The position numbers and the translations under genes are program-made. Of a DNA stretch of 64,000 nucleotides, positions 26,480-57,517 are shown one piece after another (position 1 is the first letter of the stretch; every line of letters starts with the position of its first letter). This DNA comes from a bacterium. GTDB lineage: Bacteria; UBA10199; 2-02-FULL-44-16; JAAZCA01. Location of the stretch: assembly GCA_021810905.1 (NCBI GenBank), contig JAJZQH010000014.1, forward strand, positions 12,369 through 76,368, in the 5' to 3' direction. The notes beneath the pieces are model-generated. The model made no database searches. It was not told the DNA's origin and saw only the letters and a program-made list of their open reading frames with translations.

Positions 26480-28021
<1,542 letters not shown>

Positions 28022-28173
28022 ACGGCGGCGGGAAAAGCCAGCAAGGCAAGCAACGCCAGCGACGGAAATCCCGAGAGGGAGCGCCTGGATTCAGCCCATT
28101 CAGATAGATAGCAACTTCTTTGCGAAAACGACGATAAATAATAGGTATCCTGGACACGATCGAGGGAGGGCGC

Positions 28174-28560
28174 GTGAACGTTCTTCAGAGAGTTCTGCAT
28201 ACGGACGGAAAGCGCTTGGCCGATGCTGACGGTGAATGCAGGGATCTCAATGCGAACCCCTATATCGATACGCCCGTGAGTAGGCCGGCGACAACGCCCG
28301 AAAGCCTGCAGACTGACTCTTTTATCGCGGAAAGAGAATCTGCATCGAGAGATCTCTACGCCAACCCCTACACGTCTCCGGGCATACAGAAGAAATCGAT
28401 CAAGGGCGCGCATCCCTTCCTCTGTTCAAAGTTTGACGCAACGATCGACTGCGAACTCCGGAACCCATATGTCGAAGACGACGGAGCTGCCATACGCGCG
28501 GACGCGGAAGATCGTCCGGTTGTTGAAGTGGAAGAGCTGATCGTCAATCCCTATAGATGA
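28174..28560 (+). CDS. small hypothetical protein with four NPY repeats
   Basis: GTG start 5 nt after GAGGGAGGG. Repeats LNANPYIDTP, LYANPYTSPG, LRNPYVEDD, LIVNPYR. No known domain. Confidence 0.45.
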   Translation: MNVLQRVLHTDGKRLADADGECRDLNANPYIDTPVSRPATTPESLQTDSFIAERESASRDLYANPYTSPGIQKKSIKGAHPFLCSKFDATIDCELRNPYVEDDGAAIRADAEDRPVVEVEELIVNPYR

Positions 28561-28834
28561 TATTGCGTGTTGGCCGATTGCCTTCGCGCGACCGTTCATC
28601 GCGGTTTTCGCCCACGAGCTGTTTTCTTTCCTCGTATTCAACCTGATGCCATGTCGGTAATGGAAGCCGGTAAAGATCGCCAAAATATTGACAACCGCGC
28701 GTGTTTTTCCTGATTTGAGAAATCACAATGTTGCGCCGTGCATTACAACCCCATCAATAGAAAGAGTTTTTTCTGAAATACAGATAGCCCGTTCGCGGCA
28801 CGATATTTGCTGTATAATAGGTGAGGAGGTTCTT

Positions 28835-30001
28835 ATGAAAAACAGAACAATAATCGTCTTTGTCATTGGTGTGTTTATGCTTGCAGCCGGTTCCGCCCTT
28901 GCAGCGCCTGTCTCTCAGACTTCCGAAATACGCGTGCAACAGGTAATGCCGGTTCAGCCGGGCGCCGTCAAAACCGCTCCGGCAACACCGCAATACCAGA
29001 TCCAAAAGCAAGTAATGCCTGTAATGAAGTCAGCCATAAATATTGAGGGAGGCATCGCGATTCCGAAGCGTATCGTCTACACTGAATATAAAACATCTCC
29101 CTCCAATTATGGCGAAGTGGCGGATACGCGTTCATACACCCTTAATTTTGAAAGCGGGGTGCTTTCAAACATACAGGAAACTTATTTCGGTGGTTCGTAT
29201 GAATATGATTTTACATACTTAAATAATAAGGCGACCAAGATCGTTAAAAAGAGCATTCCCTCCAATAATGTGGAAGGCATTGTTGTATACAGCTATGACG
29301 GTCCTTCTGGAAAGCTCTCTACGGAAAAGGATTATGATGGTCCAATGTCGGATGTCGATCCAACCGTGAATCTAATCGGATGGTACGATTACGGTTATAA
29401 TCAAGGAATCAGATATGGTTCCAAGACGAGTAAAAGTTCTAGCGGGACATATCAAAAAAATGCAGATTGGAACGAAGTATCTACCTTCAATACGGACGGT
29501 TTGCCCAATTACCTCACTGTTAATGATCGTCCCAATACGATACCACTTTCCGACAGGGTTGCTATCGCGTACGGCAATGACGGTTCTGTAGAGAGTATCG
29601 ACGAAAATCAGGATGCTGTTCTGAGCGTGGCAGGCCAGACCCAGGATCACGCAACTCCGATTAACAGATTCTCTCAGATCACATATGAAAACGGTATGCC
29701 CAAGAAGATGTCAATTTTCGAGGACAATAAATTGGCGTACGTTGTTCAAGCTGAAGATGTGGATGCCGTGGGGCGAGTACTCAAAGAAGCAACGTATGTT
29801 TGCAAGGATAAACCGCAATGTTTAAAATGGCGTGAGACGACTTTCGAATACGAATATTTTGCGCTGAAACCTTTGTCGCCTCCGCTCTTCACGGTGATAT
29901 CTAATCTGGCAAAGTATGAAAGCCTTCTTTTCCTGGGTCAGCCGACCTTGCTCTTCGGTAGTGACGGTGTCGGCTTGTATCAGTGGATGAAAGGTTTTTG
30001 A
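28835..30001 (+). CDS. secreted hypothetical protein (AT-rich, probably acquired)
   Basis: GAGGAGG ribosome-binding site, signal peptide MKNRTIIVFVIGVFMLAAGSALAAPVSQ. Y/D/G-rich beta-repeat-like sequence. GC far below window average. Confidence 0.65.
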   Translation: MKNRTIIVFVIGVFMLAAGSALAAPVSQTSEIRVQQVMPVQPGAVKTAPATPQYQIQKQVMPVMKSAINIEGGIAIPKRIVYTEYKTSPSNYGEVADTRSYTLNFESGVLSNIQETYFGGSYEYDFTYLNNKATKIVKKSIPSNNVEGIVVYSYDGPSGKLSTEKDYDGPMSDVDPTVNLIGWYDYGYNQGIRYGSKTSKSSSGTYQKNADWNEVSTFNTDGLPNYLTVNDRPNTIPLSDRVAIAYGNDGSVESIDENQDAVLSVAGQTQDHATPINRFSQITYENGMPKKMSIFEDNKLAYVVQAEDVDAVGRVLKEATYVCKDKPQCLKWRETTFEYEYFALKPLSPPLFTVISNLAKYESLLFLGQPTLLFGSDGVGLYQWMKGF

Positions 30002-41162: not shown

Positions 41163-41861
41163 ATGAAACAAATCCCAATGACCAAATCCCAATATCAAAA
41201 TGCGGTGATGGAATGGCAGGATCTCGGGCGCATGCCTTATCGCGAGGCGTGGTCGTTGCAGGAGAAGTTGCGCGCTGAGCGGAGTGAAGCGGTTATAACA
41301 GACAGGATGCTCATCGTGGAACATCCTCCGGTCATCACCATGGGCCGCAAGGAATGCATCGCGGACGTCGTCTCGACTGAGTCCACACTCTCAGCCGAGG
41401 GAATAGAACTCATCAAGTCGAACAGGGGCGGCCGCGCGACGTACCACGGCCCGGGACAGCTCGTCTCTTATTTTATCTGCGAACTCTCTTCATTCGGAAT
41501 GGGTGTAGCGGATTTTGTGTTTGCGCTGGAGGAGATGTGTATCCGCACGCTCGCGGATTTCGATATCTGCGCAACGCGAGATCCGGTGAACCCGGGACTC
41601 TGGGTTGGAACAGACAAAATCGTGGCCATAGGTCTGAACGTATCTCATGGCGTCACTCAGCACGGACTCGCGCTTAACGTGGACTGCGACCTCGCTGCAT
41701 ACCGACATATCATCGCATGCGGGATACATGGCAGGGGGATTACCTCGATCGAGCGGCTCACGGGCCAAAGACCGCAGCAGAGCGCAGTAGGACAGCGGCT
41801 GATCGCTCATGCCGGAGAGATATTGTCGAGGGAGATGAAGAGTGTGACGCCACTAGCCTGA
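41163..41861 (+). CDS. lipB: octanoyltransferase LipB
   Basis: QDLGRMPYREAWSLQ, PVITMGRK, RGGRATYHGPGQLV and catalytic C in HIIACGIHG match LipB. Start could be MEWQDLG at 41211. Confidence 0.85.
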   Translation: MKQIPMTKSQYQNAVMEWQDLGRMPYREAWSLQEKLRAERSEAVITDRMLIVEHPPVITMGRKECIADVVSTESTLSAEGIELIKSNRGGRATYHGPGQLVSYFICELSSFGMGVADFVFALEEMCIRTLADFDICATRDPVNPGLWVGTDKIVAIGLNVSHGVTQHGLALNVDCDLAAYRHIIACGIHGRGITSIERLTGQRPQQSAVGQRLIAHAGEILSREMKSVTPLA

Positions 41862-42074
41862 CGTGAACGTGAGCTGATCCGCGGTAGGAGTCGGAGGATC
41901 CTGAACAGACTCGTCTTTGAATTCCATGTACTCGCCTTTTGCCTCGTCGTCGGGCAACTTCTTGAGAAAGGCCTCATATTCCGCGGTATCAAGCCTGCCG
42001 AGGCGGAGATTCCGCTCGAGCAGCCTTGTGTCGTACATCAGTCCTTCGCCTGGCTTTTGTGCCTTCGTAGTCAT
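41853..42074 (-). CDS. small hypothetical protein (73 aa) downstream of the DAC gene
   Basis: Charged, helical-looking sequence MTTKAQKPGEGLMYDTRLLERNLRLGRLDTAEYEAFLKK. Co-directional with and 22 nt after the DAC gene. Confidence 0.4.
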   Translation of the reverse strand: MTTKAQKPGEGLMYDTRLLERNLRLGRLDTAEYEAFLKKLPDDEAKGEYMEFKDESVQDPPTPTADQLTFTSG

Positions 42075-42096
42075 AGGTTCTCTGTCCTCTCGTGTG

Positions 42097-43023
42097 TCAT
42101 TTTTTTGCCGGGGCCTTCTCGATATGCATTATTATCCGGCCGTCCTTGAAGATACGTACGTCGCCGGAGGACTGCGATATAACAAAGGCCACAGCCCGGG
42201 TCAAGCTTGTGATGCCCGCCGCAGCAATATGCCGGCTCCCTAGACCGCGCGGAAGCTGCGATTCATCGATAGCAGCGCCCAGGTAGCGTCCGGCAGCGAG
42301 CACGGTCCCGTCGTCGGCTATCACGAAGGCGCCGTCCATAGCGGCAAACTCGCGGATGGTCTCCTTGAGCGAGGTGGTGAGTATGTTTCGTTCATCCTCG
42401 TCGTAGCCCTTGAAGGGGTTCATGATCATCTGCTTGGAGAGCTGCATCACGTGTTCATGATCGCCCACGACGAAGATAGTACCTATAGACTTGCCCTCGC
42501 GGCCTGTATCCGCCAGCTCCACGGCCAGGTTCAGCACTGCCTGGAAGAGTTCCGGCTGAACCGCTTCAGATATCTTCGCAAGCCCCTTGTGCGCCACGAT
42601 CTCGGATTCCTTTGACGTGTCTACGATCTGTATCAGATCGAGCGATCCCGATTCGGTGGGGCCGACGGCGAAGACGATCTTTGCTCCAGGCTCTACGATC
42701 TCCTGCGAGAGTGCGAGGGTGGTTCCGATCTTTATCAACGAGATGCGCGTGAGCGCTATGCGAGGAATCTGGATTACGGCAGTTGCGCTCATTGCAAGCG
42801 AGTTCTTCTCCTCTTCACTGCCGTCCACGTGTTTTTTCTTCGTGAGCAGTATTATCTTTATGCCCTTTGGAATGCGTTCCTCGCATACGAGATCGTCCAG
42901 GGGATCCACATGCACAACAACGGCATCTGCGTCCGTCTTGGAGGCGATCGTAAAGGCTGTCTTGAGGAATAGTGCGTTTTCGCTGTTCATCCGTATTTCA
43001 AAATACCGGAAGGGCTTCGCCAC
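42097..43023 (-). CDS. DAC (diadenylate cyclase, DisA_N) domain protein with uncharacterised N-terminal domain
   Basis: C-terminal half matches the DAC pattern: GTIFVVGDHE, DGAFVIADDGTVLAAGRYL, LGSRHIAAAGITSLTRAVAFVISQSSGDVRIFKDG (compare RHRAA and VVSEETG in DisA/CdaA). The N-terminal 150 aa has no predicted transmembrane segment and no DisA HhH domain. Confidence 0.65.
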   Translation of the reverse strand: MAKPFRYFEIRMNSENALFLKTAFTIASKTDADAVVVHVDPLDDLVCEERIPKGIKIILLTKKKHVDGSEEEKNSLAMSATAVIQIPRIALTRISLIKIGTTLALSQEIVEPGAKIVFAVGPTESGSLDLIQIVDTSKESEIVAHKGLAKISEAVQPELFQAVLNLAVELADTGREGKSIGTIFVVGDHEHVMQLSKQMIMNPFKGYDEDERNILTTSLKETIREFAAMDGAFVIADDGTVLAAGRYLGAAIDESQLPRGLGSRHIAAAGITSLTRAVAFVISQSSGDVRIFKDGRIIMHIEKAPAKK

Positions 43024-43137
43024 TTCAAGGGGAATGATTGACCTTGCGGTATTGGTGCTGTAAAAAAGCGATCCGTGTTGAACAGCCGCCGCAATAACGC
43101 AGAGAGTGGGCTATGCGAAAGACGATAATATTGAAAG

Positions 43138-43262
43138 CTCCCCGCGGCAAGCCGCGGGGAATCATCGGCAACATTTCCGATCACCCTCACCCTTCCCTCT
43201 CCCCTCAAGGGAGAGGGTGGCGGAAACCCCGCAGCAAGCTGCGGGGTTTCATCGGATTGGCA
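43138..43262. repeat. cluster of three REP-like hairpins
   Basis: Hairpin a: CCCCGCGG-CAAG-CCGCGGGG at 43140-43159. Hairpin b: 43171-43229, the near-identical copy of the gltB insert, with CCCTCTCCC-CTCAA-GGGAGAGGG. Hairpin c: AAACCCCGCAGC-AA-GCTGCGGGGTTT at 43224-43249. Hairpins a and c are followed by the related tails AATCATCGGCAA and TCATCGGATTGGCAA. Confidence 0.7.
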
Positions 43263-43271
43263 ATCATCTTT

Positions 43272-44939
43272 ATGCTGTCCTCCATCGGCGGGACGGCGCG
43301 GGCTGCGCTCAATCCGTCTTCGCCGTTCCAGGTCTTCTGGGACGACGCGCCGATGACGATTTCCGCTGGAACCCCATTCCATCTCAACGTCACGATCAGG
43401 GCGCCCGAGGGGTATTATCTGTATGCGGATGAGACTGACCTCGATTTTGTGAGCCTGGAAGGCCTGTTTGTAAAAGATATTCGATATCCGCGCCCCATTC
43501 AGTACACCGACCCTTATTTAGGCAAGACAGTTGGTATTTTCAAAGGCGATACGGTCATATCGATAGAAGGCATGGCGCCCGCGGGTCTCGAACCTGGCAG
43601 AAAGGAACTCACCGCTTTATTGCATTTCAGAGGGTGTTCTCCTTCGCTCTGTTACAGGCCGGAAGAGGATGAAATCGCCTTCATACTGGTCGTGGAGCCA
43701 GCGCCGCAGGTGGAGCGAGTCGAACCAAAGAATCCGGACGTGCATGCGCAGGAGGAGTCAACGCCAATGCCCAGGAGCCTGCCGGAGCAGCTGGGGCTCA
43801 AGCACCTGCTGCAGGTTCAGGATTTCTCGACTCTGCTGGGGCGCGGAACTCTCTTTGCGCTGCTCGTCGTCTTCCTTGCGGGAGTGCTGACTTCGCTCAC
43901 GCCGTGCGTCTGGCCCGTGATACCCGTGGTCCTCCTCTATGTAGGTGTGCACCCGCACAAGCGCTTTCTGGAAAACTTCCTCCTCTCGGCCGTGATGGTC
44001 CTGGGGATAGTGGTCACCTATGCCGCACTGGGCATCGGCGTTGCGGCCTTTGGAAAAAACCTGGGTTTCCTCTATCAGCAGCGGTGGTTTTTGGCGCTGG
44101 TCGTGCTCTTCTTCATTGCGATGAGCCTCTCGATGTTCGGGGCCTTTGACATCCGCATGCCGCGCCGCCTTCATGCGCGGCTCCATGCGCTCGGGGGCGA
44201 GGGATACTGGGGCGCCTTCCTGGCTGGCATGGGGCTGGGGCTCGTCGCCTCGCCTTGTTCGGGCCCGGTGCTCGCGGCGCTTTTGGGTTACGTGGCCCTG
44301 CAGGGTAGCTACCTCGTAGGTTTCGGCCTGCTCATAGTCTACGGCCTCGGGATGGGCCTGCTCATGATGCTGCTCGGCGCATGTTACGGAGAGCTTGCCG
44401 GCAAACTCAAAGGGGGCGCGTGGATGCTCTGGATAAGGCGCGCCCTTGGAATCGTATTGCTGTTCCCGGCGGCGTACTACATGGGCGTGCTCTTCAACTG
44501 GAACCCGCAGCACAAGGCCCCTGCGAACGCCGCGCGAATAGAGTGGGTGACCAGTGAAACCGACGCCCTGCGCGCTGCAGCCCAGACGGGTAAATCCGTC
44601 ATGATCGATTTTACGGCCGCGTGGTGTCCGCCGTGCGGAGCGCTCGAACGCAATTTCTTTTCGAGAAACGACGTCATCGGGTTGGGCTTCGAGCTCATCC
44701 CGCTCAGGGTGGACGCAACGTCCGAGACAAAGGACGTGCGGCAGCTCATCGCCAGATACCGCGTCGCAGGATGGCCGACCGTTCTCTTCGTGGGGCCGGA
44801 CGGAACCGTGTACGAGGACCTGAGGGTGAGCGATTACGACCCTCCGGCAATCGAGCGCAACATGCGCGAAGCGATAAAGAGGGCCCATGCTTCTGACATG
44901 CCCGGAATACGCTCCGAACGAGCGACGGAGAAGCGATGA
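43272..44939 (+). CDS. dsbD: thiol:disulfide interchange protein DsbD-like (CcdA-type membrane core plus C-terminal thioredoxin)
   Basis: Transmembrane Cys pair LTPCVWPVIPV and SPCSGPVLAALL. C-terminal thioredoxin FTAAWCPPCGALE. Start uncertain (ATG 43272 or upstream TTG); the long upstream in-frame extension covers the repeat cluster. Confidence 0.75.
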   Translation: MLSSIGGTARAALNPSSPFQVFWDDAPMTISAGTPFHLNVTIRAPEGYYLYADETDLDFVSLEGLFVKDIRYPRPIQYTDPYLGKTVGIFKGDTVISIEGMAPAGLEPGRKELTALLHFRGCSPSLCYRPEEDEIAFILVVEPAPQVERVEPKNPDVHAQEESTPMPRSLPEQLGLKHLLQVQDFSTLLGRGTLFALLVVFLAGVLTSLTPCVWPVIPVVLLYVGVHPHKRFLENFLLSAVMVLGIVVTYAALGIGVAAFGKNLGFLYQQRWFLALVVLFFIAMSLSMFGAFDIRMPRRLHARLHALGGEGYWGAFLAGMGLGLVASPCSGPVLAALLGYVALQGSYLVGFGLLIVYGLGMGLLMMLLGACYGELAGKLKGGAWMLWIRRALGIVLLFPAAYYMGVLFNWNPQHKAPANAARIEWVTSETDALRAAAQTGKSVMIDFTAAWCPPCGALERNFFSRNDVIGLGFELIPLRVDATSETKDVRQLIARYRVAGWPTVLFVGPDGTVYEDLRVSDYDPPAIERNMREAIKRAHASDMPGIRSERATEKR

Positions 44940-46971: not shown

Positions 46972-47349
46972 ATGGACGAACTCCAGCGTATGTTCAGGGC
47001 GCTTGCCGATTCGACAAGACTGCGGATAGTCAGGATGCTCGTGATTAAGCCTCTTTGCGTCTGCGAGGTTATGTCCGTGCTTCGCATGGCGCAATCCACT
47101 ACGTCGAAGCACCTGCGTATTCTTCATGATTCGGGGCTCGTCGAAGAGACGCCCGGCGGCACCTGGACAATCTATCGTCTCGTGAAACCGGAGCTCGGAT
47201 CGGCGGCGGAGTATCTTCTTGATCTCATCAAGAAGGCAGAGGTGACGGAGCAATCGAAACGGGACGAGGAACAGGCGAGAGGGGCGGACCGCGAACGAAT
47301 CTGCCGGTTGCGCGCAAAGAAGACAATCAAACGGCAACGGCGGAGGTGA
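46972..47349 (+). CDS. arsR: ArsR/SmtB family metalloregulator
   Basis: ALADSTRLRIVRMLV..PLCVCEVMSVL carries the CVC As(III)-binding motif in helix 3. HTH region TTSKHLRILHDSGLV. Confidence 0.9.
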   Translation: MDELQRMFRALADSTRLRIVRMLVIKPLCVCEVMSVLRMAQSTTSKHLRILHDSGLVEETPGGTWTIYRLVKPELGSAAEYLLDLIKKAEVTEQSKRDEEQARGADRERICRLRAKKTIKRQRRR

Positions 47350-47352
47350 GCT

Positions 47353-48423
47353 ATGGCCGAGAGCGGCGTCAAAAAACGTCTCAATGTATTCGAACGTTAC
47401 CTCACGCTTTGGGTGGCGGCTTGCATGGTGATTGGTGTGGCGATCGGCCGATATTTGCCGGTGGCTACCGATGCGCTGCGGAGATTCGAATTCGGGACGC
47501 AGAGTCACATCAACGTCGTTATCGCTGTCCTCATCTGGCTCATGATTTATCCCATGATGCTCAAGGTCGACTTCGGGTCGATCCTGAACGTCGGGCGTCA
47601 GCCGAGGGGGCTTGCCATCACGCTCTTCGTCAACTGGCTCGTCAAACCCTTCAGCATGGCCTTCTTCGGCTGGCTCTTCTTCCGACATGTCTTCACGCCG
47701 TGGATCGGCCCCGAGATGGCCGACCAGTATATAGCCGGCGTCATCATTCTCGCTGCGGCGCCTTGCACCGCCATGGTATTTGTCTGGAGCTATCTCACCG
47801 ACGGCGACCCGGCTTACACGCTCGTGCAGGTGACGATCAACGATCTTATCATGCTCGTCCTTTTCGCTCCGATCGTGAAGTTCCTCGTCACCGGCGCTTC
47901 GACGCTCGAGGTCCCGTTTGTCGTGCTTGTCTGGGCCGTGGTCTTGTTCATCGTAATTCCACTGACGGCGGGAACCGTCACGCGCGCAATCCTCCTCAAA
48001 GCGAAGAACGCAATTTGGTTCGAGGAGAAGTTCCTCCCGGTCCTCCATCCTGTTTCGATCCTGGCCTTGCTTCTTACGCTCGTCATCATCTTCGCCTTCC
48101 AGTCGGACAACATCACGCAGCGATTCTTTCACGTCATCCTGATCGCGGTCCCGATCCTCATCCAAGTCTACTTCAACTCAACCCTTGTCTATACGCTCAT
48201 GCAGAAGTTCCGTGTCCGATTCTCCATTGCGGCGCCGGGCGCGCTCATCGGGGCATCGAACTTCTTTGAGCTGGCGGTAGCCACAGCCATCGCGCTCTAT
48301 GGCCCGGGTTCTGGTGCTGCGCTGGCTACGGTGGTCGGCGTGCTCGTTGAAGTGCCGGTGATGCTCTCAGTCGTCGGGATCTGCAACCGTACGCGCGGCT
48401 GGTTCGCAAACGCCACACGCTAG
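47353..48423 (+). CDS. acr3: arsenite efflux transporter, ACR3 family
   Basis: MAESGVKKRLNVFERYLTLWV..IYPMMLKV. About ten predicted transmembrane segments. ACR3 family length and pattern. Confidence 0.88.
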   Translation: MAESGVKKRLNVFERYLTLWVAACMVIGVAIGRYLPVATDALRRFEFGTQSHINVVIAVLIWLMIYPMMLKVDFGSILNVGRQPRGLAITLFVNWLVKPFSMAFFGWLFFRHVFTPWIGPEMADQYIAGVIILAAAPCTAMVFVWSYLTDGDPAYTLVQVTINDLIMLVLFAPIVKFLVTGASTLEVPFVVLVWAVVLFIVIPLTAGTVTRAILLKAKNAIWFEEKFLPVLHPVSILALLLTLVIIFAFQSDNITQRFFHVILIAVPILIQVYFNSTLVYTLMQKFRVRFSIAAPGALIGASNFFELAVATAIALYGPGSGAALATVVGVLVEVPVMLSVVGICNRTRGWFANATR

Positions 48424-48437
48424 AAAAGGAGGAATTC

Positions 48438-49319
48438 ATGTTTCGAACGATCCTGATTGCGACCGATCTCTCCGCGGCATCGGAGGAGCTGTGCAAGTGC
48501 GTCGTGTCCCTCAAGAAGATCGGCCCGCGCGAGGTCTGGCTTGCACATGTCTGCAATGTTCGACAGGTAGGAGGGCTGGCGACCTCACTCAAGGAGGAGC
48601 ACCTCGGGGAGCTTGAACGTCAGGTGGGTATCCTCAAACGACATGGTCTCAACGCCAGGGGCGTGATCCGCCAGGGGATTCCTTTCATCGAGATCAATCG
48701 CGAGGCGACGCGGAGGAAGGCGCGCCTTATCGTCGTAGGAAGCCACGGCGAAGGACTTCTCAAGGAGATGCTGATCGGTTCTACTGCCTTCGAAATCATT
48801 CGACAGGGGACGCACCCGGTGCTCGTCTTCCGTCACGAAGTCATCGAACGCGAAGGAAATCGGCGCTGCCTGATGCGTTGCCACGATCCATTCAGGCACA
48901 TCCTCTTCGCTACGGACTTCTCGAAGAACGCGGCGCACGCCCAACTCTTTGTCGACCACATCTGCCGCGAGGCGAGGCCTCGCGTGACACTCGTTCACGT
49001 TCAGGAGAAATCACGGATCGAGCATCACCTAAAGGAACGCCTTGCAGAATTCAATCGCATCGATACCGCGCGTCTCGAGACGATCGCGAATGGCCTTCGG
49101 AAACGGGGGGCGCGGAAGGTCGACATCGCCATTCCCTACGGCCATGCCGTGAAAGAGCTCTTGAAGCTGGAACGGAAGGCGAAACCCACGCTGATTGTGC
49201 TTGGTTCGCAAGGTCGCAGCTGGACAAACGAGCTTTTCCTAGGGAGCGTCGCCCACAACGTCGTCCGGCACGCCAAAACGCCGGTTCTCGTTGTGCCATG
49301 GCGTCCCGCGTTTGCATAA
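48438..49319 (+). CDS. tandem universal stress protein (two UspA domains)
   Basis: Two repeats of the Usp pattern (ILIATDLS ... VVGSHGEG and ILFATDFS ... VLGSQGRS). Confidence 0.8.
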   Translation: MFRTILIATDLSAASEELCKCVVSLKKIGPREVWLAHVCNVRQVGGLATSLKEEHLGELERQVGILKRHGLNARGVIRQGIPFIEINREATRRKARLIVVGSHGEGLLKEMLIGSTAFEIIRQGTHPVLVFRHEVIEREGNRRCLMRCHDPFRHILFATDFSKNAAHAQLFVDHICREARPRVTLVHVQEKSRIEHHLKERLAEFNRIDTARLETIANGLRKRGARKVDIAIPYGHAVKELLKLERKAKPTLIVLGSQGRSWTNELFLGSVAHNVVRHAKTPVLVVPWRPAFA

Positions 49320-49356
49320 CCTTTTCCCGGAAAAAAAGCCTTTGGAGAGGCTGATC

Positions 49357-49695
49357 ATGAATATCGAAATATATGATCCGGCAATGTGTTGTTCGACGGG
49401 GCTCTGCGGGCCGGCGATCGATCCGGTGCTCGTCAGAATGAACGATGCCTTGCTGGCATTGAAAAAACAGGGAGTCGAAATCGAACGGTTCAATCTTGCC
49501 CAGCAGACACAAGCGTTCATGATGAACAAAACGGTCGCCGGCCTACTCCATAAGAACGGAAAAAAGATACTGCCTGTCATTTTTGTCAATGGAGAGGTGT
49601 TCATGACGGGTCGATATCCGTCCTATGAGGAGTTGTGCGAGGTGCTGGGCATTGAACCATTAAAGCAACAACCAATAACGCTGACAGCTCGCTGA
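49357..49695 (+). CDS. arsD: arsenical resistance metallochaperone and repressor ArsD
   Basis: MNIEIYDPAMCCSTGLCGP carries the Cys12-Cys13-Cys18 As(III) site. GGAGAGG ribosome-binding site. Confidence 0.88.
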   Translation: MNIEIYDPAMCCSTGLCGPAIDPVLVRMNDALLALKKQGVEIERFNLAQQTQAFMMNKTVAGLLHKNGKKILPVIFVNGEVFMTGRYPSYEELCEVLGIEPLKQQPITLTAR

Positions 49696-49712
49696 TAACA
49701 TGAGGAGGATGA

Positions 49713-50006
49713 ATGCTTACGGTGACTGATAATGCGGTAGAGCGATTCAAAAAAATGCTTCAGGAAAATAGCGGTGAAAATTGCGGGATAAGGATATTCG
49801 CAGCCGGCGGCGGTTGTTGTGGCCCCTCCATGGCGATGGATATGGCGGAAAAAGCCGAAAGTGGAGATGAAACCATTGATGTAAGTGGGCTTAAGATCTT
49901 CCTTGATATAGAGGCGGGCAAATTACTCGGCGGCGCGACAATAGATTACTCTGATCAGCAGGGTTTCATCATAACGGGAATGCCGCGCGCGTCATGCTGC
50001 GGTTGA
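49713..50006 (+). CDS. HesB/IscA-like protein with C-terminal CC motif
   Basis: MLTVTDNAVERFKKMLQEN..IRIFAAGGGCCGPS..IDYSDQQGFII matches the IscA/HesB fold pattern. C-terminal SCCG. Located between arsD and arsA. Confidence 0.6.
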   Translation: MLTVTDNAVERFKKMLQENSGENCGIRIFAAGGGCCGPSMAMDMAEKAESGDETIDVSGLKIFLDIEAGKLLGGATIDYSDQQGFIITGMPRASCCG

Positions 50007-50015
50007 AATTCGGAG

Positions 50016-51818
50016 ATGACGCAGATGACGAAATATCTTTTTTTCTCGGGCAAGGGAGGCGTCGGCAAGACCACGATGGCGTCCTCAACCGCCATTCATC
50101 ATGCGGAGGCAGGAAAACGGACCCTGATCGTGACGACCGACCCTGCCTCCAACCTGGCCGATGTCTTCGAGCAGGAGATAGGGCACGCAATAACGCCCAT
50201 CCGGGACGTGAAGGGTCTCTTTGCCATGGAGATCGACCCCGATGAAGCGACGAGGGAATACAAGGAACGGATCATCGGTCCGTTCAGGGAGGTTATGCCG
50301 GAAGACGTCATCGCGTCCCTCGAGGAAAACTTAAGCGGCCCGTGCACTACGGAGATGGCCTCCTTTGACCGCTTCATCGACTTCATGGAGGACGATGCCT
50401 ACGACGTCATCGTGTTTGATACCGCCCCAACGGGCCACACGATAAGGCTCCTTGAGCTGCCGGTTGACTGGTCCAGGCATATTGAGGAATCCGCAAAGGG
50501 GAGCGGGCAGACATGCCTCGGCCCGGTTCAGTCCATCCAGGAATCGAAGGCAAAATACGACAGGGCGACTGCCCTCCTCACCGCTCCCGACAAAACGAGC
50601 TTTGTCTTTGTCATGAGGCCTGAGGAGCTGTCGCTCTACGAAACCCTCAGGGCATCCCGCGAGCTCGAGACCATCGGTGTAAAATCGGGAGAACTCATCA
50701 TCAACGGCATTCTGCCGGAAGAGGTCTGCGAGATCGCCTTCTTCAGAAAAAAATACGAGGCGCAGCAGCGGGTCATCAAAGAGGCGGAGTCGGCAATACC
50801 AAAACCAACGCGCTTCATGCTCCTTCGGGACAATGAGGTCAAAGGCATAGAGGCGTTACGTGCTATGGCAGAGGAGCTCTACAATGGCACGAGATCTGCC
50901 CCCAGCGTCGAGGGCATGACGTTCCAGGCCGATATCGCCGTGGAGAAGCCGGACGTCGATCGCCTCCTCCTTCCTGCCGGCGAGACGAAGGCGATATTCT
51001 TCACTGGGAAGGGCGGCGTGGGCAAAACGACTGTGTCCTGTATCGCGGCTGTTCATATCGCGCAGAGGGGTTTTAAGACGCTCCTCGTTACGACGGACCC
51101 GGCGGCGCACATCGGGGAGGTGCTCGGCGTGAAGGTCCAGAGCACGCCGACTCTGGTTACGTATAATCTGTACGCCGTCATGGTCGACCAGGAAGAGGCT
51201 TTCAATATCTATAGGGACAGGGTCTTGAGCGAATCCAGAGGCAAATATTCCGAGGACATGATTGCCGCCATGGAGGAAGAGCTGAATTCGCCGTGTACTC
51301 AGGAGATGGCGGCCTTTGACACCTTCATCCAGTTCATCGAAAGCAAGGAGTACGACGCCATCGTCTTTGACACGGCGCCGACGGGTCACACCTTGAGATT
51401 GCTCTCCCTGCCGTTTGATTATGCAAAGCAGATGGAGATGATGGTATCGACGGAAGAGGCTTCGCACGCCGGCAATGTGACGGGCAACAGGTTTCGTGAT
51501 ATCATCGACGTACTGAAAAACAAGAACAAGGCATGTTTCGCTTTCGTCCTTTATCCCGAGTCCACGCCGATTCTCGAATCTTACAGGGCGATGCTGGACC
51601 TCAGGGATGCCGGAATCGAGACGCAGGTTGTTGTCTCCAATATGATGTTGCCGAAAGAGGTCTGTACCAACCATTTCTTTGAGAACAGAAGAAGGATGCA
51701 ACTGAAATATCTGTTGGAAATCGAGGAGAAATTCAATCTGCCGGTCCTGCAGCTACCGCTCTTCCAGGATGAAGTAAAGGGCCTCGGACCGCTGAAAATG
51801 GCGGCGGGAAATTTGTAA
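50016..51818 (+). CDS. arsA: arsenite-stimulated ATPase ArsA
   Basis: Two homologous halves, each with a P-loop GKGGVGKTT, DTAPTGHT signal-transduction motif and metalloid-site Cys (GPCTTEMA and SPCTQEMA). Confidence 0.92.
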   Translation: MTQMTKYLFFSGKGGVGKTTMASSTAIHHAEAGKRTLIVTTDPASNLADVFEQEIGHAITPIRDVKGLFAMEIDPDEATREYKERIIGPFREVMPEDVIASLEENLSGPCTTEMASFDRFIDFMEDDAYDVIVFDTAPTGHTIRLLELPVDWSRHIEESAKGSGQTCLGPVQSIQESKAKYDRATALLTAPDKTSFVFVMRPEELSLYETLRASRELETIGVKSGELIINGILPEEVCEIAFFRKKYEAQQRVIKEAESAIPKPTRFMLLRDNEVKGIEALRAMAEELYNGTRSAPSVEGMTFQADIAVEKPDVDRLLLPAGETKAIFFTGKGGVGKTTVSCIAAVHIAQRGFKTLLVTTDPAAHIGEVLGVKVQSTPTLVTYNLYAVMVDQEEAFNIYRDRVLSESRGKYSEDMIAAMEEELNSPCTQEMAAFDTFIQFIESKEYDAIVFDTAPTGHTLRLLSLPFDYAKQMEMMVSTEEASHAGNVTGNRFRDIIDVLKNKNKACFAFVLYPESTPILESYRAMLDLRDAGIETQVVVSNMMLPKEVCTNHFFENRRRMQLKYLLEIEEKFNLPVLQLPLFQDEVKGLGPLKMAAGNL

Positions 51819-51828
51819 ACGGGTAACT

Positions 51829-52377
51829 ATGCACATTCTCGAAACTGCTAATATGTCGCTGGAGATGGAGGAACGGGTGATTTTAAACGACCTCAGCTTG
51901 TCGGTCGAGGCCGGAACGATCCACTCCATTCTCGGGCCGAACGCCGCGGGGAAGTCAAGCCTGGCCTACGCTCTCATAGGTTGTTGCGACTATTTTCCGC
52001 AAAAAGGTTCCATTCAATTTCTTGGTGAAGATGTTACCGATGCCCCCGTGAGCAAGAGGGCGCGAATGGGCATGACGCTCGCATGGCAGGAGCCCGCCCG
52101 TTTCGAGGGGCTCACGGTAGAAGATTATATTGCCGTCGGTATGCGAGAGAAGAACGACGATGCCATTAACGAAGCACTTCGCCACGTTCTATTGAATCCG
52201 GATGACTATCGACACAGAGCGGTCGATAAAACCTTGAGTGGCGGGGAGAGAAAACGAATTGAGCTCGCCGCCATCTTCCGTACCAGAATGCCGGTGGGGT
52301 ACCCGCGGTTTTTAAACGCTCCGATATCGCCCATCTCATCGTCCATAGGAACAAGGTCATCGGCAGCACGACGGTGA
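51829..52377 (+). CDS. SufC-like ABC ATPase, apparently truncated or frameshifted after the LSGGE signature (possible pseudogene)
   Basis: Walker A GPNAAGKSS, Q-loop and signature LSGGERKR are present. No Walker B, D-loop or H-loop. An H-loop-like piece (DIAHLIVHRNKV) sits in the reading frame of the next gene upstream of its GTG. Confidence 0.55.
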   Translation: MHILETANMSLEMEERVILNDLSLSVEAGTIHSILGPNAAGKSSLAYALIGCCDYFPQKGSIQFLGEDVTDAPVSKRARMGMTLAWQEPARFEGLTVEDYIAVGMREKNDDAINEALRHVLLNPDDYRHRAVDKTLSGGERKRIELAAIFRTRMPVGYPRFLNAPISPISSSIGTRSSAARR

Positions 52378-53186
52378 AGGGATTGATACTCGAGCCGAAA
52401 GAATCCGCTGCGGGGGTTGATATACGACTGACAGTACAGCGAGGGGTAAAAATTGAAAATCTTGTGCATCTCTGTTTTGGCGTCCTTCCAAAGGAAGGCG
52501 TTCAGGAAATTAACATCAATGCGCTGATTGAGGATGACGCCGGAGTTAAGCTTCTTGCCCATTGCGTCTTTCCCAATGCCGTTAAGGTGGTCCATAAAAT
52601 GTTGGCCGATATTACGATCGGCAACAACGCTTATTATGAATATAATGAGGTGCATCATCACGGCGAAGGCGGCGGCATCGAAGTTGTTCCAAAGGCGAAA
52701 ATCAGGGTTGGTAATAACAGCAGTCTGACGACGACATTTTCCCTACTCAAGGGCAGGGTGGGTGTATTCAATCTGGACTACGAAACGGAGGTCTTGGACC
52801 ATTCTTCACTTGATATGACGGCAAAGATCTACGGTTACGGTGACGACCAGATACTAATCAGAGAGGCTGGGCGCGTTATCGGCGAATCCTCTCGAGGCCT
52901 CCTCAAAAGCCGCGTTGCCCTGAAAGAGAATGCTATGTGCGAGATTGTCAACGAACTTACCGCCTCCGCCAGCGGCGCCAGGGGCCACGTTGACTGCGTG
53001 GAGATCATCCAGGGCAGCGCTACGGCAAAGGCCGTTCCTATCGTCCATGTGACGAACGAATTCGCGCAAGTCACCCACGAGGCAGCCATAGGCAGGGTGG
53101 ACAAAAAACAGGTTGAAACCCTGATGGCGCGGGGACTTGATGAAGAAAAGGCCATTGACGTCGTGGTTGGCGGATTTCTCAAGTAA
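52374..53186 (+). CDS. SufB/SufD-family beta-helix protein
   Basis: C-terminal SufBD signature GHVDCVEIIQG...HEAAIGRVDKKQVETLMARGLDEEKA..VVGGF. GTG start overlaps the SufC-like end. Confidence 0.7.
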   Translation: MKGLILEPKESAAGVDIRLTVQRGVKIENLVHLCFGVLPKEGVQEININALIEDDAGVKLLAHCVFPNAVKVVHKMLADITIGNNAYYEYNEVHHHGEGGGIEVVPKAKIRVGNNSSLTTTFSLLKGRVGVFNLDYETEVLDHSSLDMTAKIYGYGDDQILIREAGRVIGESSRGLLKSRVALKENAMCEIVNELTASASGARGHVDCVEIIQGSATAKAVPIVHVTNEFAQVTHEAAIGRVDKKQVETLMARGLDEEKAIDVVVGGFLK

Positions 53187-53206
53187 TTTCAAAACAGGGG
53201 GATAAT

Positions 53207-53575
53207 ATGAAAATAGCAATTCTCATGTGCGCATGCAGCGGGGTGTGTCCCAGTATGGCGAAGATCAATTTCTTCGATCTCATGGAAAGGTTGAGGCTCG
53301 AAGTGCCGCACGATTTCATGGTTTTGCACCCGCGCCTGTGCGAGGAAAACGGCGAGGCCCTTATGCGGGACCTGCTCAAGCCTGATACGGTCTACGTCAC
53401 GCCAGCCTGTAACGAAAAACATCAGATGAAGCTCCTTGCGGCCGGCTTTTCGAAGGCCGGCGTGCCCATGGATGATAAGCACTGGATTCCGGTGACGCTC
53501 GCGCAGAAGGACACCGACCAGGCGTTTGCGGATATCAAGGCCGCCGTTGAAAAGGCGAAGGGGATCGCGTCATGA
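53207..53575 (+). CDS. Cys-rich protein, tentatively MvhD/FlpD-like
   Basis: KIAILMCACSGVC ... FMVLHPRLCEENGEALMRDLLKPDTVYVTPAC follows the spacing of the FlpD pattern KIavFlCnwC ... VriirvpCsG...GADgVlv.gC. Weak, motif-level call only. Confidence 0.4.
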   Translation: MKIAILMCACSGVCPSMAKINFFDLMERLRLEVPHDFMVLHPRLCEENGEALMRDLLKPDTVYVTPACNEKHQMKLLAAGFSKAGVPMDDKHWIPVTLAQKDTDQAFADIKAAVEKAKGIAS

Positions 53576-53850
53576 AGAAGACCTACCTAGGCGTCCCGCG
53601 CGAAGAGATTCCGTGGTATCCCCATATCAACGCCGATCTGTGCACGTTGTGCGGTGCGTGCAAGGAGTTCTGCCCGAACGATGTGTTCGAGGCTGGCGTC
53701 GAGTGCATGCTCGTCAAGAATCCGATGAACTGCGTCGTCGCTTGCGACAAGTGCGCGGCTGAGTGCCCGATTGCGGCGATCTCATTCCCCGACAAGGCCC
53801 AGCTGCTCAAGTGGGTCGAGGAAGCCAAGAGCAAGAAAGGAACGACATGA
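53572..53850 (+). CDS. 2x[4Fe-4S] ferredoxin
   Basis: Two cluster motifs: CTLCGACKEFCP and CVVACDKCAAECP. Confidence 0.8.
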   Translation: MKKTYLGVPREEIPWYPHINADLCTLCGACKEFCPNDVFEAGVECMLVKNPMNCVVACDKCAAECPIAAISFPDKAQLLKWVEEAKSKKGTT

Positions 53851-54335
53851 AAGCGCGCAAAGCCATCAGAAACGCTTTGCGCATCGTCCTTTTGCTCATC
53901 GTCGCGGGGAGCGTCGGATATCTCTTCGCGAAGGATTACGTGTGGAACGGCGGCGAAATGCCTGCCCCTGTAGCCGCTCCTTCGGCCACGCCCGACCACG
54001 TCGTCGCTTACTATTTCCACAGCAATTTCCGCTGCGTGTCCTGCCGAGAGATCGAGGAATATTCCCGCGCGGCGATCGAGGAGGGCTTCCAGCTGGAGTT
54101 GAAAGACGGCCGCCTCTCGTTCGAGGTCGTCAATGTTGAGGAGCCGCAGAATCGCCATTTCATCCGTGACTACTCCCTTGTCACGAAGTCGTTGGTGCTA
54201 GTGCTCAAGGACGGCGACCGACAGGTGCGCTTCAAGAACCTCGATTTCGTCTGGCAGCTCCTTGGTTCTCCCGACCAATTCAAAATATATGTCCAGAATG
54301 AGGTCCGCGGATTTCTCGGTGAGGTGCGACGATGA
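53847..54335 (+). CDS. membrane-anchored thioredoxin-like CxxC protein (possible ArsF-like nitro-arsenical reductase subunit)
   Basis: Start set at MKARKAIRNALRIVLLLIVAGSVGYLF, an N-terminal transmembrane anchor. Thioredoxin-like YYFHSNFRCVSCREIE. Confidence 0.55.
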   Translation: MKARKAIRNALRIVLLLIVAGSVGYLFAKDYVWNGGEMPAPVAAPSATPDHVVAYYFHSNFRCVSCREIEEYSRAAIEEGFQLELKDGRLSFEVVNVEEPQNRHFIRDYSLVTKSLVLVLKDGDRQVRFKNLDFVWQLLGSPDQFKIYVQNEVRGFLGEVRR

Positions 54336-55015
54336 CGTTCCTCGGACTCCTCTCGGCCCTGTGGCTGGGACTCTTGACCTCCGTTTCTCCGTGTCCTCTT
54401 GCGACGAATGTCGCCGCTGTTTCCTTCGTCTCGCGACGTTTTTCAAATCATACAGCCGTGCTTTCGGCGGGGGTGCTCTACACGCTGGGGCGCGTTTTTA
54501 CCTACACGTTGCTCGGCGCATTCCTCGTCACAGGTCTCATCAATGCATCCCGCATCTCCTTCTTCCTGCAATTCTCTATTGGGAAATTCCTTGGCCCTGC
54601 GATGATCCTCGTAGGCATGGTTGTCTTGGATCTCATTAGAATTCCCCTCCCGAAGGGGAGGTGGCTCTCTCGCATGGAGGAACGCGCCGGACGATGGGGA
54701 CAACCCGGTTCGGTTGTCCTGGGCATCCTCTTCGCGATTATGTTTTGTCCCGTCTCGGCTGCGCTTTTCTTCGGTGGGTTGATTCCGCTTGCGGTAGAAC
54801 AGAAGTCGTCATTTCTCCTGCCAACGCTGTACGGGATCGGGACCGGTCTTCCGGTGGCACTCTTTGCCGTTTTCTTTGCAGTCGGTTTGAAGCGGGTGGG
54901 CAGGATCGTCCATCGCATGGCGAGCGTGGAAATATGGGCGCGTCGCGCGACAGGCGTCATCTTCATTCTTATCGGGCTGTACGAAACATATCTCGCTTTG
55001 CGAGGCGCTGCATGA
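54332..55015 (+). CDS. ccdA: CcdA/DsbD-family transmembrane thiol-disulfide electron transporter
   Basis: Conserved transmembrane Cys in LTSVSPCPLATN and a second in FCPVSAALFFGG. Six predicted transmembrane segments. Confidence 0.7.
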   Translation: MTFLGLLSALWLGLLTSVSPCPLATNVAAVSFVSRRFSNHTAVLSAGVLYTLGRVFTYTLLGAFLVTGLINASRISFFLQFSIGKFLGPAMILVGMVVLDLIRIPLPKGRWLSRMEERAGRWGQPGSVVLGILFAIMFCPVSAALFFGGLIPLAVEQKSSFLLPTLYGIGTGLPVALFAVFFAVGLKRVGRIVHRMASVEIWARRATGVIFILIGLYETYLALRGAA

Positions 55016-55032
55016 TCTGAAAGGAGCTGTTC

Positions 55033-55326
55033 ATGGAAATCAAAGTTCTCGGACCCGGATGCTCCAATTGTCAAACGCTGATCGAGCGCGTCGGAAAGGC
55101 CGTTCAAAAGGCGGGCGTCGAGGCGACGATCACCAAGGTGACGGATTACGACGAGATGCTCTCTTACGGCATCATGAGCACGCCTGGGCTCGTCATCGAT
55201 GGGAAGCTCATAATGAGCGGCAGGGTGCCGTCCGTTGACGAAATTACAAAATTGATCGCAGACACAAATGTGGCGGTGGCATCGGTGAGCGCTGGAGGCA
55301 AATGCAGCTGCGGCAGTTGCTGCTGA
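55033..55326 (+). CDS. small thioredoxin-family protein (redox-active disulfide protein 2 type) with Cys-rich tail
   Basis: MEIKVLGPGCSNCQTL matches the TM0983/MTH895-like CxxC thioredoxin pattern. C-terminal GGKCSCGSCC. Confidence 0.7.
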   Translation: MEIKVLGPGCSNCQTLIERVGKAVQKAGVEATITKVTDYDEMLSYGIMSTPGLVIDGKLIMSGRVPSVDEITKLIADTNVAVASVSAGGKCSCGSCC

Positions 55327-55337
55327 GAGGAGGAAAT

Positions 55338-55565
55338 ATGTCAGGAAGTTTACCGGATAATACTCGCGAACTGGTTGCAATGGCGGCTTCGGTTGCCTGC
55401 GGCTGTGAGCCCTGCCTCAAATACCATTACGACGCTGCTAAAAAAGCCGGTTGCAGCGTGAAAGAAATGACCGATGCGGTCGGTATCGCCATGATGGTCA
55501 AACAGGCACCGCTCAAAGCCATGGAAGAGCTCACACAACGATTAGGTATACGGAAGGGGGCATGA
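55338..55565 (+). CDS. AhpD-like (carboxymuconolactone decarboxylase family) protein
   Basis: VACGCEPCLKYH matches the AhpD-core CxxC motif. Strong GGAGGAAAT ribosome-binding site before ATG 55338. Confidence 0.65.
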   Translation: MSGSLPDNTRELVAMAASVACGCEPCLKYHYDAAKKAGCSVKEMTDAVGIAMMVKQAPLKAMEELTQRLGIRKGA

Positions 55566-55630
55566 GCCCCGGGTCATTTTGACGTCTTCTTGGCTGCTGA
55601 TGGACGCTCGTTCGTTCGGAAAGGTCTTTC

Positions 55631-56089
55631 ATGACGCGACTCAAGATATTGTTTCTCTGCACCGGCAACTCCTGCCGCAGCCAGATGGCGGAGGGATGGG
55701 CGAAGCATCTCCTTGGGGATGATGTCGAGGTATACTCCGCTGGCGTCGAGGCGCACGGACTCAATCCACGCGCGGTCAAGGTCATGGCCGAGGCGGGCGT
55801 GAACATATCCGGACAGAAATCGAAAACAATCGAGGAACTGGGCGATTCCACGTTCGATGTGGTCATAACGGTCTGCGACCGGGCGCGCGAGTCTTGCCCG
55901 ATCTTTCCCGGGAATGCTGAGAAGATCCATCGTTCTTTCGACGATCCGCCGAGCTTGGCCGAGGAAGCGAAAACCGAAGAGGAAGCCCTGGAGCACTACC
56001 GCCGCGTGCGCGATGAAATCCGCGCGTTCGTTGAAACATTGCTGGACATCTTGAACAACACGGGGAAAAAATCGGAAGAGCAGGCGTGA
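55631..56089 (+). CDS. arsC: arsenate reductase, LMW-PTP (thioredoxin-coupled) type
   Basis: P-loop [16 protein letters not shown], with downstream Cys in CDRARESCP. Confidence 0.88.
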
Positions 56090-56131
56090 ACAGACATCTC
56101 ACGCTGTAAATTTCGGGAAGATCCAGGAACG

Positions 56132-56560
56132 ATGAAAGATCAATACATCAAGAGCATTCTCTTTCTGTGTACGGGCAACGCCTGTCGCTCGCAGATGGCT
56201 GAAGGGTTTGCGCGTGAAATGCTGCCTCCGGGATGGCGGGTGTACAGCGCGGGAATTAAGGCGTCGGGCCTGAATCAGCGGGCGGCGGCGGTGATGAGCG
56301 AGGTCGGATTCGACATCTCAAGCCAGCGTTCAAAGACGCTGGACGAAATTCCCGTGGACGATATCGATTACGTGATCACGCTGTGCGGCCATGCGAGGGA
56401 CATGTGCCCAGTATTTCTACGTGCGGTGTTCACAGAGCACTGGCCGATAGACGACCCGATTCGATCCGAAGGAACGCCCATGGAGCAGCGGGTCTTTCGC
56501 AGTACGAGGGATGATATCCGGCGCCGCGTGCAGGACCTTGCGAGGCGTCTGAAGGGGTAG
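56132..56560 (+). CDS. arsC: second LMW-PTP-type arsenate reductase paralogue
   Basis: [16 protein letters not shown] and CGHARDMCP. Confidence 0.85.
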   Translation: MKDQYIKSILFLCTGNACRSQMAEGFAREMLPPGWRVYSAGIKASGLNQRAAAVMSEVGFDISSQRSKTLDEIPVDDIDYVITLCGHARDMCPVFLRAVFTEHWPIDDPIRSEGTPMEQRVFRSTRDDIRRRVQDLARRLKG

Positions 56561-56563
56561 TGA

Positions 56564-57511: not shown

Positions 57512-57517
57512 ATATTA

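Follow-up and report, generated by a model that had tools for sequence, protein, structure and literature searches.

DacZ-type cyclases were first studied in archaea. The class, also named CdaZ or DacY and exemplified by Haloferax volcanii DacZ (HVO_1660) and Methanocaldococcus jannaschii CdaZ, comprises soluble proteins of ~270-300 aa with two domains: an N-terminal one folded like the C-terminal domain of pyruvate kinase (PK_C-like; PF21755) and a C-terminal diadenylate cyclase (DAC; PF02457) domain with an invariant DGA motif. The former is described in Pfam as "probable sensor domain DacZ_P"; to our knowledge, neither a ligand for the PK_C-like domain of any DacZ-class member nor a protein partner of DacZ-type cyclases has been described. 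Haloferax DacZ was shown to synthesise c-di-AMP in vitro in the presence of Mn2+, and haloarchaeal dacZ is found in an operon with mscS2 (PMC6741144). DacZ and CdaZ were considered one family with a PK_C-like N-terminus, present "also in some bacteria" (Braun 2019; PMC6741144), and the DAC architectures, including that of DacZ/CdaZ, were catalogued by Galperin 2023, as that work is cited in PMC12901056 and PMC10249747. Among the other cyclases, CdaA (DacA) is the membrane-anchored enzyme of Firmicutes and many other bacteria.

In the window, the whole stretch of 64,000 nucleotides that was analysed, we identified a gene pair (Table 1) that we interpret, with good confidence, as coding for a predicted soluble, cytoplasmic cyclase of the DacZ/CdaZ class (DacZ_P-DAC), with a putative PK_C-like metabolite sensor, and a probably co-transcribed companion.

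Table 1. Features of the cyclase locus (positions of the window; residues in 297-aa numbering).
Feature	Position	Strand	Remarks
Conserved small acidic protein	41853..42074	-	73 aa, ATG start, pI 4.6; candidate cyclase partner
Spacer between cyclase stop and small-ORF start	42075..42096	-	22 nt; GAGAGGA purine run, possible ribosome-binding site
DacZ-class diadenylate cyclase gene	42097..42990	-	297 aa from Met12; ORF, homologs and source gene call
DAC (DisA_N) catalytic domain	42136..42507	-	Residues ~162-285; Pfam PF02457
R253-H254-I255 at the canonical RHR position	42226..42234	-	Codons cgg cat att
DGA motif, D219-G220-A221	42328..42336	-	Codons gac ggc gcc, read from the sequence
DacZ_P (pyruvate-kinase-C-like) putative sensor domain	42601..42990	-	Residues 1 to ~130; PF21755 and fold
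Divergent intergenic region, cyclase/dsbD	42991..43112	.	Presumed promoter region; ORF layout

Both open reading frames of the initial annotation are present on the minus strand (42097..43023 and 41853..42074), the first one in a longer form of 308 aa that begins at an upstream GTG at 43023. This form is probably too long: the real start is most likely Met12 (nt 42990), since nearly all of 120 close homologs begin with MNSEN and are ~297 aa long, and the gene call of the source, with 297 aa, agrees. The cyclase gene is divergent from dsbD (43113..44939, + strand) and the promoters are presumably located between the two, as we infer from the gene layout, because a consensus promoter scan around the cyclase/small-ORF pair gave no sigma-70-like site. 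Its neighbours (dsbD, lipB, a CDP-alcohol phosphatidyltransferase gene, hflX and dnaE) are housekeeping genes with synteny conserved across many species; the chromosomal position of the cyclase gene is stable and its GC content normal. Identity among the 120 homologs is 61-87%, and both halves of the protein are under strong purifying selection; its AF2 model reached a pLDDT of 84.9 and a pTM of 0.80.

The assignment of the C-terminal half to the DAC fold, as proposed in the initial annotation, is well founded. PF02457 matched with an E-value of 8.9e-21 (74.1 bits versus a cutoff of 27) over profile positions 5-118 of 119, sequence matches were obtained to CdaA, DacA and DacM in the PDB, and Foldseek related the model of the cyclase to CdaA, DacA, CdaM and DisA with a probability of 1.00. 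No further Pfam domains were detected beyond DacZ_P and DAC. The cyclase does not belong to the other known types. The models for CdaA (TIGR00159, 30.5 bits versus a cutoff of 188.8), DisA (NF010009, 19.9 bits versus 201), CdaS (NF038328, 25.1 bits versus 225) and CdaM (NF038327, 36.9 bits versus 225) matched the DAC core only, far below their cutoffs, in agreement with the earlier statement that the N-terminus has neither an HhH domain nor CdaS-like helices. CdaS is marked by two N-terminal helices and CdaM by a single transmembrane helix, whereas the N-terminus here is an alpha/beta domain. The DAC domain is C-terminal and nothing follows it, while DisA has a linker and a C-terminal HhH DNA-binding domain. 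Likewise, no transmembrane segment was detected (the maximal Kyte-Doolittle mean over 19 residues is 1.39), in line with the initial annotation, which noted no membrane anchor. The window cyclase has the same catalytic fold as CdaA (TM to target 0.56-0.67), with the DGA, the R-H pair and the conserved serine in common, but differs from it in the missing three-helix membrane anchor, in having RHI and SQSSG instead of RHR and SEETG, and in the lack of cdaR or glmM nearby.

The best match among NCBIfam models was that of haloarchaeal DacZ (NF041371; 140.6 bits), with an alignment of ~220 residues (81-302) that extends far past the DAC core. The score is far from the equivalog cutoff of 430 bits, and ten distant relatives scored similarly, between 113 and 149 bits. 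The window protein is thus a distant homolog of haloarchaeal DacZ, bacterial and from uncultured delta-proteobacteria-like MAGs. It also differs in its genetic partner: no mscS gene is present downstream, where the 73-aa acidic ORF is found instead, followed by a convergent lipB. Some acidic candidates considered for a comparison with archaeal DacZ were discarded, as they are not haloarchaeal equivalogs and their cluster names point to Planctomycetota.

The N-terminal part is a 130-residue alpha/beta domain (domain-only AF2 model, pLDDT 83.5), with conserved positions that include P76, T81, R82, K87, G110, D118, D124 and E128-S129-E130. The PF21755 match is weak in the window protein itself (E-value 1.5e-4; 21.8 bits versus a gathering score of 27.4); a majority of the 120 close homologs (61-80% identity) carry a precomputed PF21755 match, and seven of ten distant ones exceed the gathering score. 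Pyruvate kinases constituted all 50 of the top 50 PDB matches in a Foldseek search with the domain-only model (probability 1.00, TMq 0.53-0.67), with a sequence identity of 12-22%; the likeness is to the PK_C allosteric domain (PF02887), and the kinase catalytic barrel is missing from the cyclase. This relation was revealed by fold comparison only, as the profile of the N-domain gave no matches against PDB sequences; one distant relative (P0156) matched PK_C by sequence (E-value 2.3e-4). The N-terminus therefore matches a described class of DAC proteins, and the novelty attributed to it in the initial annotation falls. The same applies to the suggestion of a distinct architecture, since that of DacZ/CdaZ, bacterial members included, has already been described (PMC6741144). 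The idea of a sensor-linked cyclase holds in part: the N-domain is not of the CdaA, DisA or CdaS type and resembles a sensor, but the architecture is not new.

The small ORF downstream codes for an acidic protein, charged as was first noted. Its core of ~45 residues (fD.R..r.lr.G.....eY..yLKsLPDe) is accompanied by an acidic tail and by LTFTS(G) at the C-terminus. The short spacer with its GAGAGGA run implies that cyclase and small ORF are probably co-transcribed, and no terminator-like site was found by consensus scan in 41600..43300. The corresponding family comprises 118 clusters, all of them unannotated, and the gene is under purifying selection (dN/dS 0.17-0.33). Searches of the small ORF and 33 homologs against Pfam, NCBIfam and PADLOC returned scattered single-member chance matches, and a SHOCT-like assignment was rejected as one such weak match (E-value 0.11). 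The linkage to the cyclase gene, also part of the initial annotation, is recurrent: a profile of the small protein found matches in 57-58 of 85 loci, ~53 of them at most 100 nt downstream of the cyclase.

Is this linkage functional? It may be that the small ORF is unrelated to the cyclase and simply stayed next to it by descent, in a lineage whose gene order is conserved, a serious alternative to which we give somewhat less than even weight. In many loci the whole block dsbD-dac-small-lipB-pssA-like-hflX-dnaE is syntenic; a Rosetta-stone search among 280 cyclase homologs found no fusion of cyclase and small protein; in three loci (L064, L065 and L081) the small gene is upstream of the cyclase, at a distance of ~2.7 kb; and no analogous small gene was identified in the cyclase loci of Syntrophales, Nitrospinota and Tectomicrobia. 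Nevertheless, more than 20 loci that lack an adjacent LipB, and in which DsbD is missing or displaced, retain the two genes side by side, co-oriented and 0-90 nt apart (among them L022, L031, L033-L036, L042-L044, L052, L055 and L072). Peripheral members of the small-protein family point in both directions: two (L086 and L087) keep the adjacency among different neighbours, whereas one of the three checked is not beside a cyclase. Near the peripheral homolog of L088, an unannotated 288-aa gene was the single candidate neighbour for a cyclase and, when tested, proved not to be one. On the evidence of gene linkage, we regard the product of the small ORF as a candidate cyclase partner that most plausibly regulates the enzyme or acts as an adaptor. 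Such a role is suggested by analogy with CdaR and GlmM (for CdaA) and RadA (for DisA), products of cyclase-linked genes that modulate activity; the analogy is functional speculation, as the small protein is unrelated in sequence to all three and carries no known domain. It is possible, if on the unlikely side, that the protein stands for a family, so far undescribed, whose members are dedicated partners of the DacZ-type cyclases across a large delta-proteobacteria-like radiation of uncultured organisms.

Concerning the active site, the DGA motif falls on that of CdaA in the alignment; all 107 close homologs compared keep it unchanged, and 133 of 136 distant representatives have its aspartate. 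MDGAFVI, LGSRHIAAAGITS and VISQSSGDVRIF, quoted in the initial annotation, were all found in the cyclase, while RxAAG, quoted as well, is not a recognised DAC motif. The alignment to DGA and RHR that the assignment had called for was obtained for DGA, R and H, but not for the third residue of RHR: the canonical motif is replaced by RHI. Also, SEETG of CdaA corresponds to SQSSG. These substitutions, seen in the alignment with CdaA, could suggest that the DAC domain is degenerate, being a pseudo-enzyme or a receptor that binds c-di-AMP or ATP; in fact, Mycobacterium tuberculosis DisA with RHR mutated to AAA no longer binds ATP and is inactive (PMC3328451). In that mutant, however, all three residues were changed together and not the third arginine alone. 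Moreover, the third position varies class-wide, RHA being observed in 55 of 150 representatives and RHR in only 11 of 150, and is occupied by I, L, M or Q in the close homologs, all of which keep R and H. RHx and S-[E/Q]-S are common to the bacterial DacZ_P-DAC relatives sampled and constitute the consensus of the whole DacZ_P-DAC class, which includes enzymes reported to be active (PMC6741144). The DGA motif, R253, H254 and S272 are invariant or nearly so in the 107 close and ~136 distant homologs, under strong purifying selection, and we regard a degenerate domain as very unlikely.

It is extremely unlikely that the cyclase is the signal generator of a DAC-based, CBASS-like anti-phage module with the small ORF as a component, since, although some DacZ genes co-occur with CBASS according to a preprint (10.1101/2025.06.19.660554) and a PADLOC candidate model, "diadenylate cyclase", matches the cyclase (E-value 2.7e-14), that match spans the generic DAC core only (51.6 bits), the small ORF has no PADLOC match, no effector, SAVED or TIR genes are found among the neighbours, and the gene lies, as described above, in a conserved housekeeping context, at a stable chromosomal position and with normal GC content.

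Taking the locus as coding for a DacZ/CdaZ-class cyclase with a companion, we suggest the following mechanism. [quoted passage not shown] The PK_C-like N-domain would most likely bind a small phosphorylated metabolite or a nucleotide and tune the activity or the oligomerisation of the cyclase. The 73-aa acidic protein, linked by gene position, may act as a lineage-specific companion that regulates the cyclase or serves as its adaptor. If so, an inhibitor, activator or adaptor of 73 aa might dock on the PK_C-like or on the DAC domain, and would constitute a new kind of control of c-di-AMP synthesis at the protein level, alongside CdaR, GlmM and RadA.

The cyclase itself is of little novelty, as its architecture is known from Pfam as well as from the literature, and public MAGs contain close homologs already annotated as "diadenylate cyclase". 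Only the uncharacterised small gene that travels with it is mildly new, and the tight pairing with this unannotated acidic protein provides a concrete lead on the regulation of soluble DacZ-type cyclases. No c-di-AMP phosphodiesterase, receptor or riboswitch was found within the window. At least 520 species genomes contain relatives of the cyclase; the majority are MAGs of uncultured delta-proteobacteria-like bacteria, Nitrospinota, Syntrophales and Tectomicrobia, and it is therefore probable that these organisms use c-di-AMP signalling. In the Syntrophales loci, the cyclase gene is followed by clpB.

The two co-directional ORFs and the motifs quoted in the initial annotation are present in the sequence, but the pair is encoded on the minus strand and the start of the cyclase had to be corrected. 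Of the 120 closest homologs, nearly all begin with MNSEN and are about 297 aa long, and the gene call of the source metagenome is also 297 aa; since these agree, the true start is most likely Met12 (nt 42990) of the GTG-initiated form. Twenty-two nucleotides separate the cyclase stop codon from the start of the small ORF, which is preceded by a GAGAGGA purine run, while the 3′ end of the small ORF overlaps that of the convergent lipB gene. No terminator-like hairpin was detected around this overlap. The cyclase has no membrane anchor, as had been noticed initially (maximum 19-residue hydropathy of 1.39, no transmembrane segment).

Coordinates of the features discussed (window positions)
Feature	Position	Strand	Size
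Pyruvate kinase with PK_C domain	2122-3561	-	
Low-GC stretch	about 27800-30000		
TTG-start ORF	28688..30001		437 aa
lipB	41163..41861	+	
Overlap of small ORF and lipB	41853-41861		9 nt
Small ORF	41853..42074	-	73 aa
Cyclase ORF, GTG-start form	42097..43023	-	308 aa
DsbD-type thiol:disulfide interchange gene	43113-44939	+	
Arsenic-resistance cluster	46972-58500		
ArsR	46972..47349		
ACR3/SBF	47353..48423		
ArsA	about 50016..51818		

The assignment of the C-terminal half as a DAC domain was confirmed: the whole Pfam DAC profile (PF02457) aligns with residues 173–296 of the 308-aa form (E 8.9e-21), phmmer against PDB sequences retrieved CdaA, DacA and DacM chains, and a confident AlphaFold2 model built from 107 homologs (pLDDT 84.9, pTM 0.80) has CdaA, DacA, CdaM and DisA as top PDB fold matches (probability 1.00). 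Of the proposed motifs, DGA was recovered in full and RHR in part. In the numbering of the 297-aa form, all 107 close homologs share DGA (D219-G220-A221), as do >95% of about 136 distant representatives, and the RHR position reads R253-H254-I255, with R and H invariant and an isoleucine instead of the third arginine. All close homologs have I, L, M or Q at that third position, which is variable in the wider family (of 150 representatives, 55 have RHA and only 11 have RHR), and the S-E-E-T-G site of CdaA has the family consensus S-[E/Q]-S-[T/S]-G, being SQSSG in the window protein. The RHI and SQSSG deviations are traits of the class, not lesions of this gene. The one mutagenesis study of RHR that was found replaced all three residues together (PMC3328451) and so says nothing on the third arginine alone. 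In the alignment to the NCBIfam DacZ model (270 positions), the offset at the C-terminal end is 36, so that, assuming no net indels, the DGA aspartate falls near position 194 of the model, matching D194 of the Haloferax DacZ D194GA motif. The window protein is, very probably, a diadenylate cyclase.

The N-terminal half, initially described as a novel domain in a possibly distinct architecture, turned out to belong to an already described class. Pfam DacZ_P ('probable sensor domain DacZ_P') matches residues 17–137 below threshold (21.8 vs 27.4 bits, E 1.5e-4), with the sister models DacZ_T and DacZ_A weaker still; the DacZ_P threshold is passed by seven of ten distant relatives (about 35–50% identity), and the distant relative P0156 also matches PK_C itself. 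The PF21755 and PF02457 pair is precomputed for most of the 120 close homologs (61–87% full-length identity). When residues 1–140 were modelled alone (pLDDT 83.5), all 50 top PDB matches were pyruvate kinases (probability 1.00, query-normalised TM 0.53–0.67). This arrangement is the architecture described by Braun et al. 2019 (PMC6741144), and the N-terminus thus matches a known DAC class, its DacZ_P/pyruvate kinase-like domain having already been described; Galperin 2023, as cited in PMC12901056 and PMC10249747, sorted DAC architectures into 22 families. The best NCBIfam match, 'diadenylate cyclase DacZ', extends over residues 81–302, far past the DAC core, whereas alignments to the CdaA, CdaM, CdaS and DisA models are limited to about 70 DAC-core residues. 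Judging from these profiles, the cyclase is a DacZ class member and not an ortholog of haloarchaeal DacZ, since it scores 140.6 bits against an equivalog cutoff of 430 bits; ten further bacterial relatives have comparable scores. A canonical pyruvate kinase is also encoded in this genome, and its PK_C domain could be an in-genome comparator for DacZ_P.

When 1.84 billion representatives were searched exhaustively, 1468 clusters matched at E ≤ 1e-3 and, at the stricter E ≤ 1e-30, 377 did; many of the matches span the full length. Relatives occur in at least 520 GTDB species genomes, the closest being 87% identical; the best 80 of these are all uncultured MAGs, labelled Deltaproteobacteria, UBA10199, Myxococcota/Myxococcales, Bdellovibrio-like, Nitrospinota, Syntrophales, Tectomicrobia or Entotheonellaceae. 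Planctomycetota are the nearest named outgroups, and several homologs (NCBI, JGI) already bear the name 'diadenylate cyclase'. Some relatives have PTS_EIIA_2 fused at the N- or C-terminus, and others are acyltransferase-EIIA-DacZ_P-DAC or DHH-DHHA1-DacZ_P-DAC proteins, in which DHH-DHHA1 is possibly a phosphodiesterase. These fusions hint at links to PTS/phosphorylation state and at an enzyme both making and breaking c-di-AMP. Extra modules are seen in the distant homologs P0182 (680 aa), P0144 and P0165 (about 450 aa), P0138 (480 aa) and P0156 (714 aa).

[quoted passage not shown] The PK_C-like domain would sense a small phosphorylated ligand and control activity, and c-di-AMP would then affect osmolyte/ion homeostasis, as in other organisms. 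The small protein might, speculatively, modulate the cyclase.

The small ORF is a conserved gene under purifying selection. Orthologs from five loci are 34–44% identical and conserve D15, R17, L37, L40-P41-D42 and a C-terminal TF[TS], and dN/dS is 0.17–0.33 against seven orthologs, with dS near saturation. A database-wide profile search gave 118 clusters, all standalone (56–98 aa), the named members all being 'hypothetical'; no consistent Pfam, NCBIfam or PADLOC match was found in this family. Of the 85 loci fetched, 57 contain a match to its profile and 58 a match to a broader one, and in about 53 the gene follows the cyclase in the same orientation after roughly 0–90 nt. The small acidic protein is thus a companion of the cyclase that is restricted to one clade and evolves rapidly. 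That it is merely an inherited neighbour is a serious possibility, a little short of even. The small gene is absent at Syntrophales, Nitrospinota and Tectomicrobia cyclase loci, and no fusion with the cyclase occurs among 280 cyclase homologs. The pair is kept despite changed synteny in >20 loci without adjacent LipB and with DsbD absent or displaced (e.g. L022, L031, L033-L036, L042-L044, L052, L055, L072). Of three peripheral members of the family with different neighbours, two keep it as well (L086, L087). Exceptions place the small gene about 2.7 kb upstream (L064, L065, L081) or 3.4 kb downstream (L038) of the cyclase; at L088, the one candidate neighbour of the small-ORF homolog that was tested is not a cyclase. 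A role as regulator or adaptor is a reasonable guess from this linkage alone, and a dedicated functional partnership with the cyclase seems doubtful; of all the elements here, only the conserved small ORF might reward experimental work. At loci of the more distant Syntrophales and related MAGs (L060, L066-L068, L070, L075, L076, L082), clpB stands immediately 3′ of the cyclase instead, often overlapping it.

Elsewhere the window has housekeeping genes (pyruvate kinase, glutamate synthase, the GTPases Era and Der, IMPDH, GuaA, OmpA-family protein, DnaE, HflX, CDP-alcohol phosphatidyltransferase, LipB, DsbD and GMC oxidoreductase). Neither a c-di-AMP phosphodiesterase nor a dedicated c-di-AMP receptor was found in the window, where an Rfam scan detected only a tRNA; there is no defence-island context around the cyclase, its PADLOC match being to the generic DAC core. 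The DsbD-type gene is divergent from the cyclase at most clade loci (L001-L049, L086, L087), also at the periphery with other neighbours and sometimes with one gene between (e.g. glutamate dehydrogenase), and the two may form a conserved divergent promoter pair.

For an ars operon, the large arsenic-resistance cluster has an unusually rich gene content: ArsR and ACR3/SBF are followed by Usp, ArsD, ArsA, SufBD-like, ABC ATPase, ferredoxin, DsbD-like, thioredoxin, CMD, two LMWPc and ArsP genes, including Fe-S assembly-like (SUFBD_core, ABC_tran, Fe-S_biosyn), ferredoxin and thiol-redox functions. In the low-GC stretch, GC falls to 0.479, the flanks being at about 0.58. By coordinate mapping onto the window, two contigs of ERZ27237050, the ENA metagenome assembly from which the window derives, overlap there by about 1 kb, k141_112864 ending near 28811 and k141_181305 starting near 27821. 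This stretch, which contains the TTG-start ORF, could represent a repeat or a mobile element, or mark a join in the assembly.
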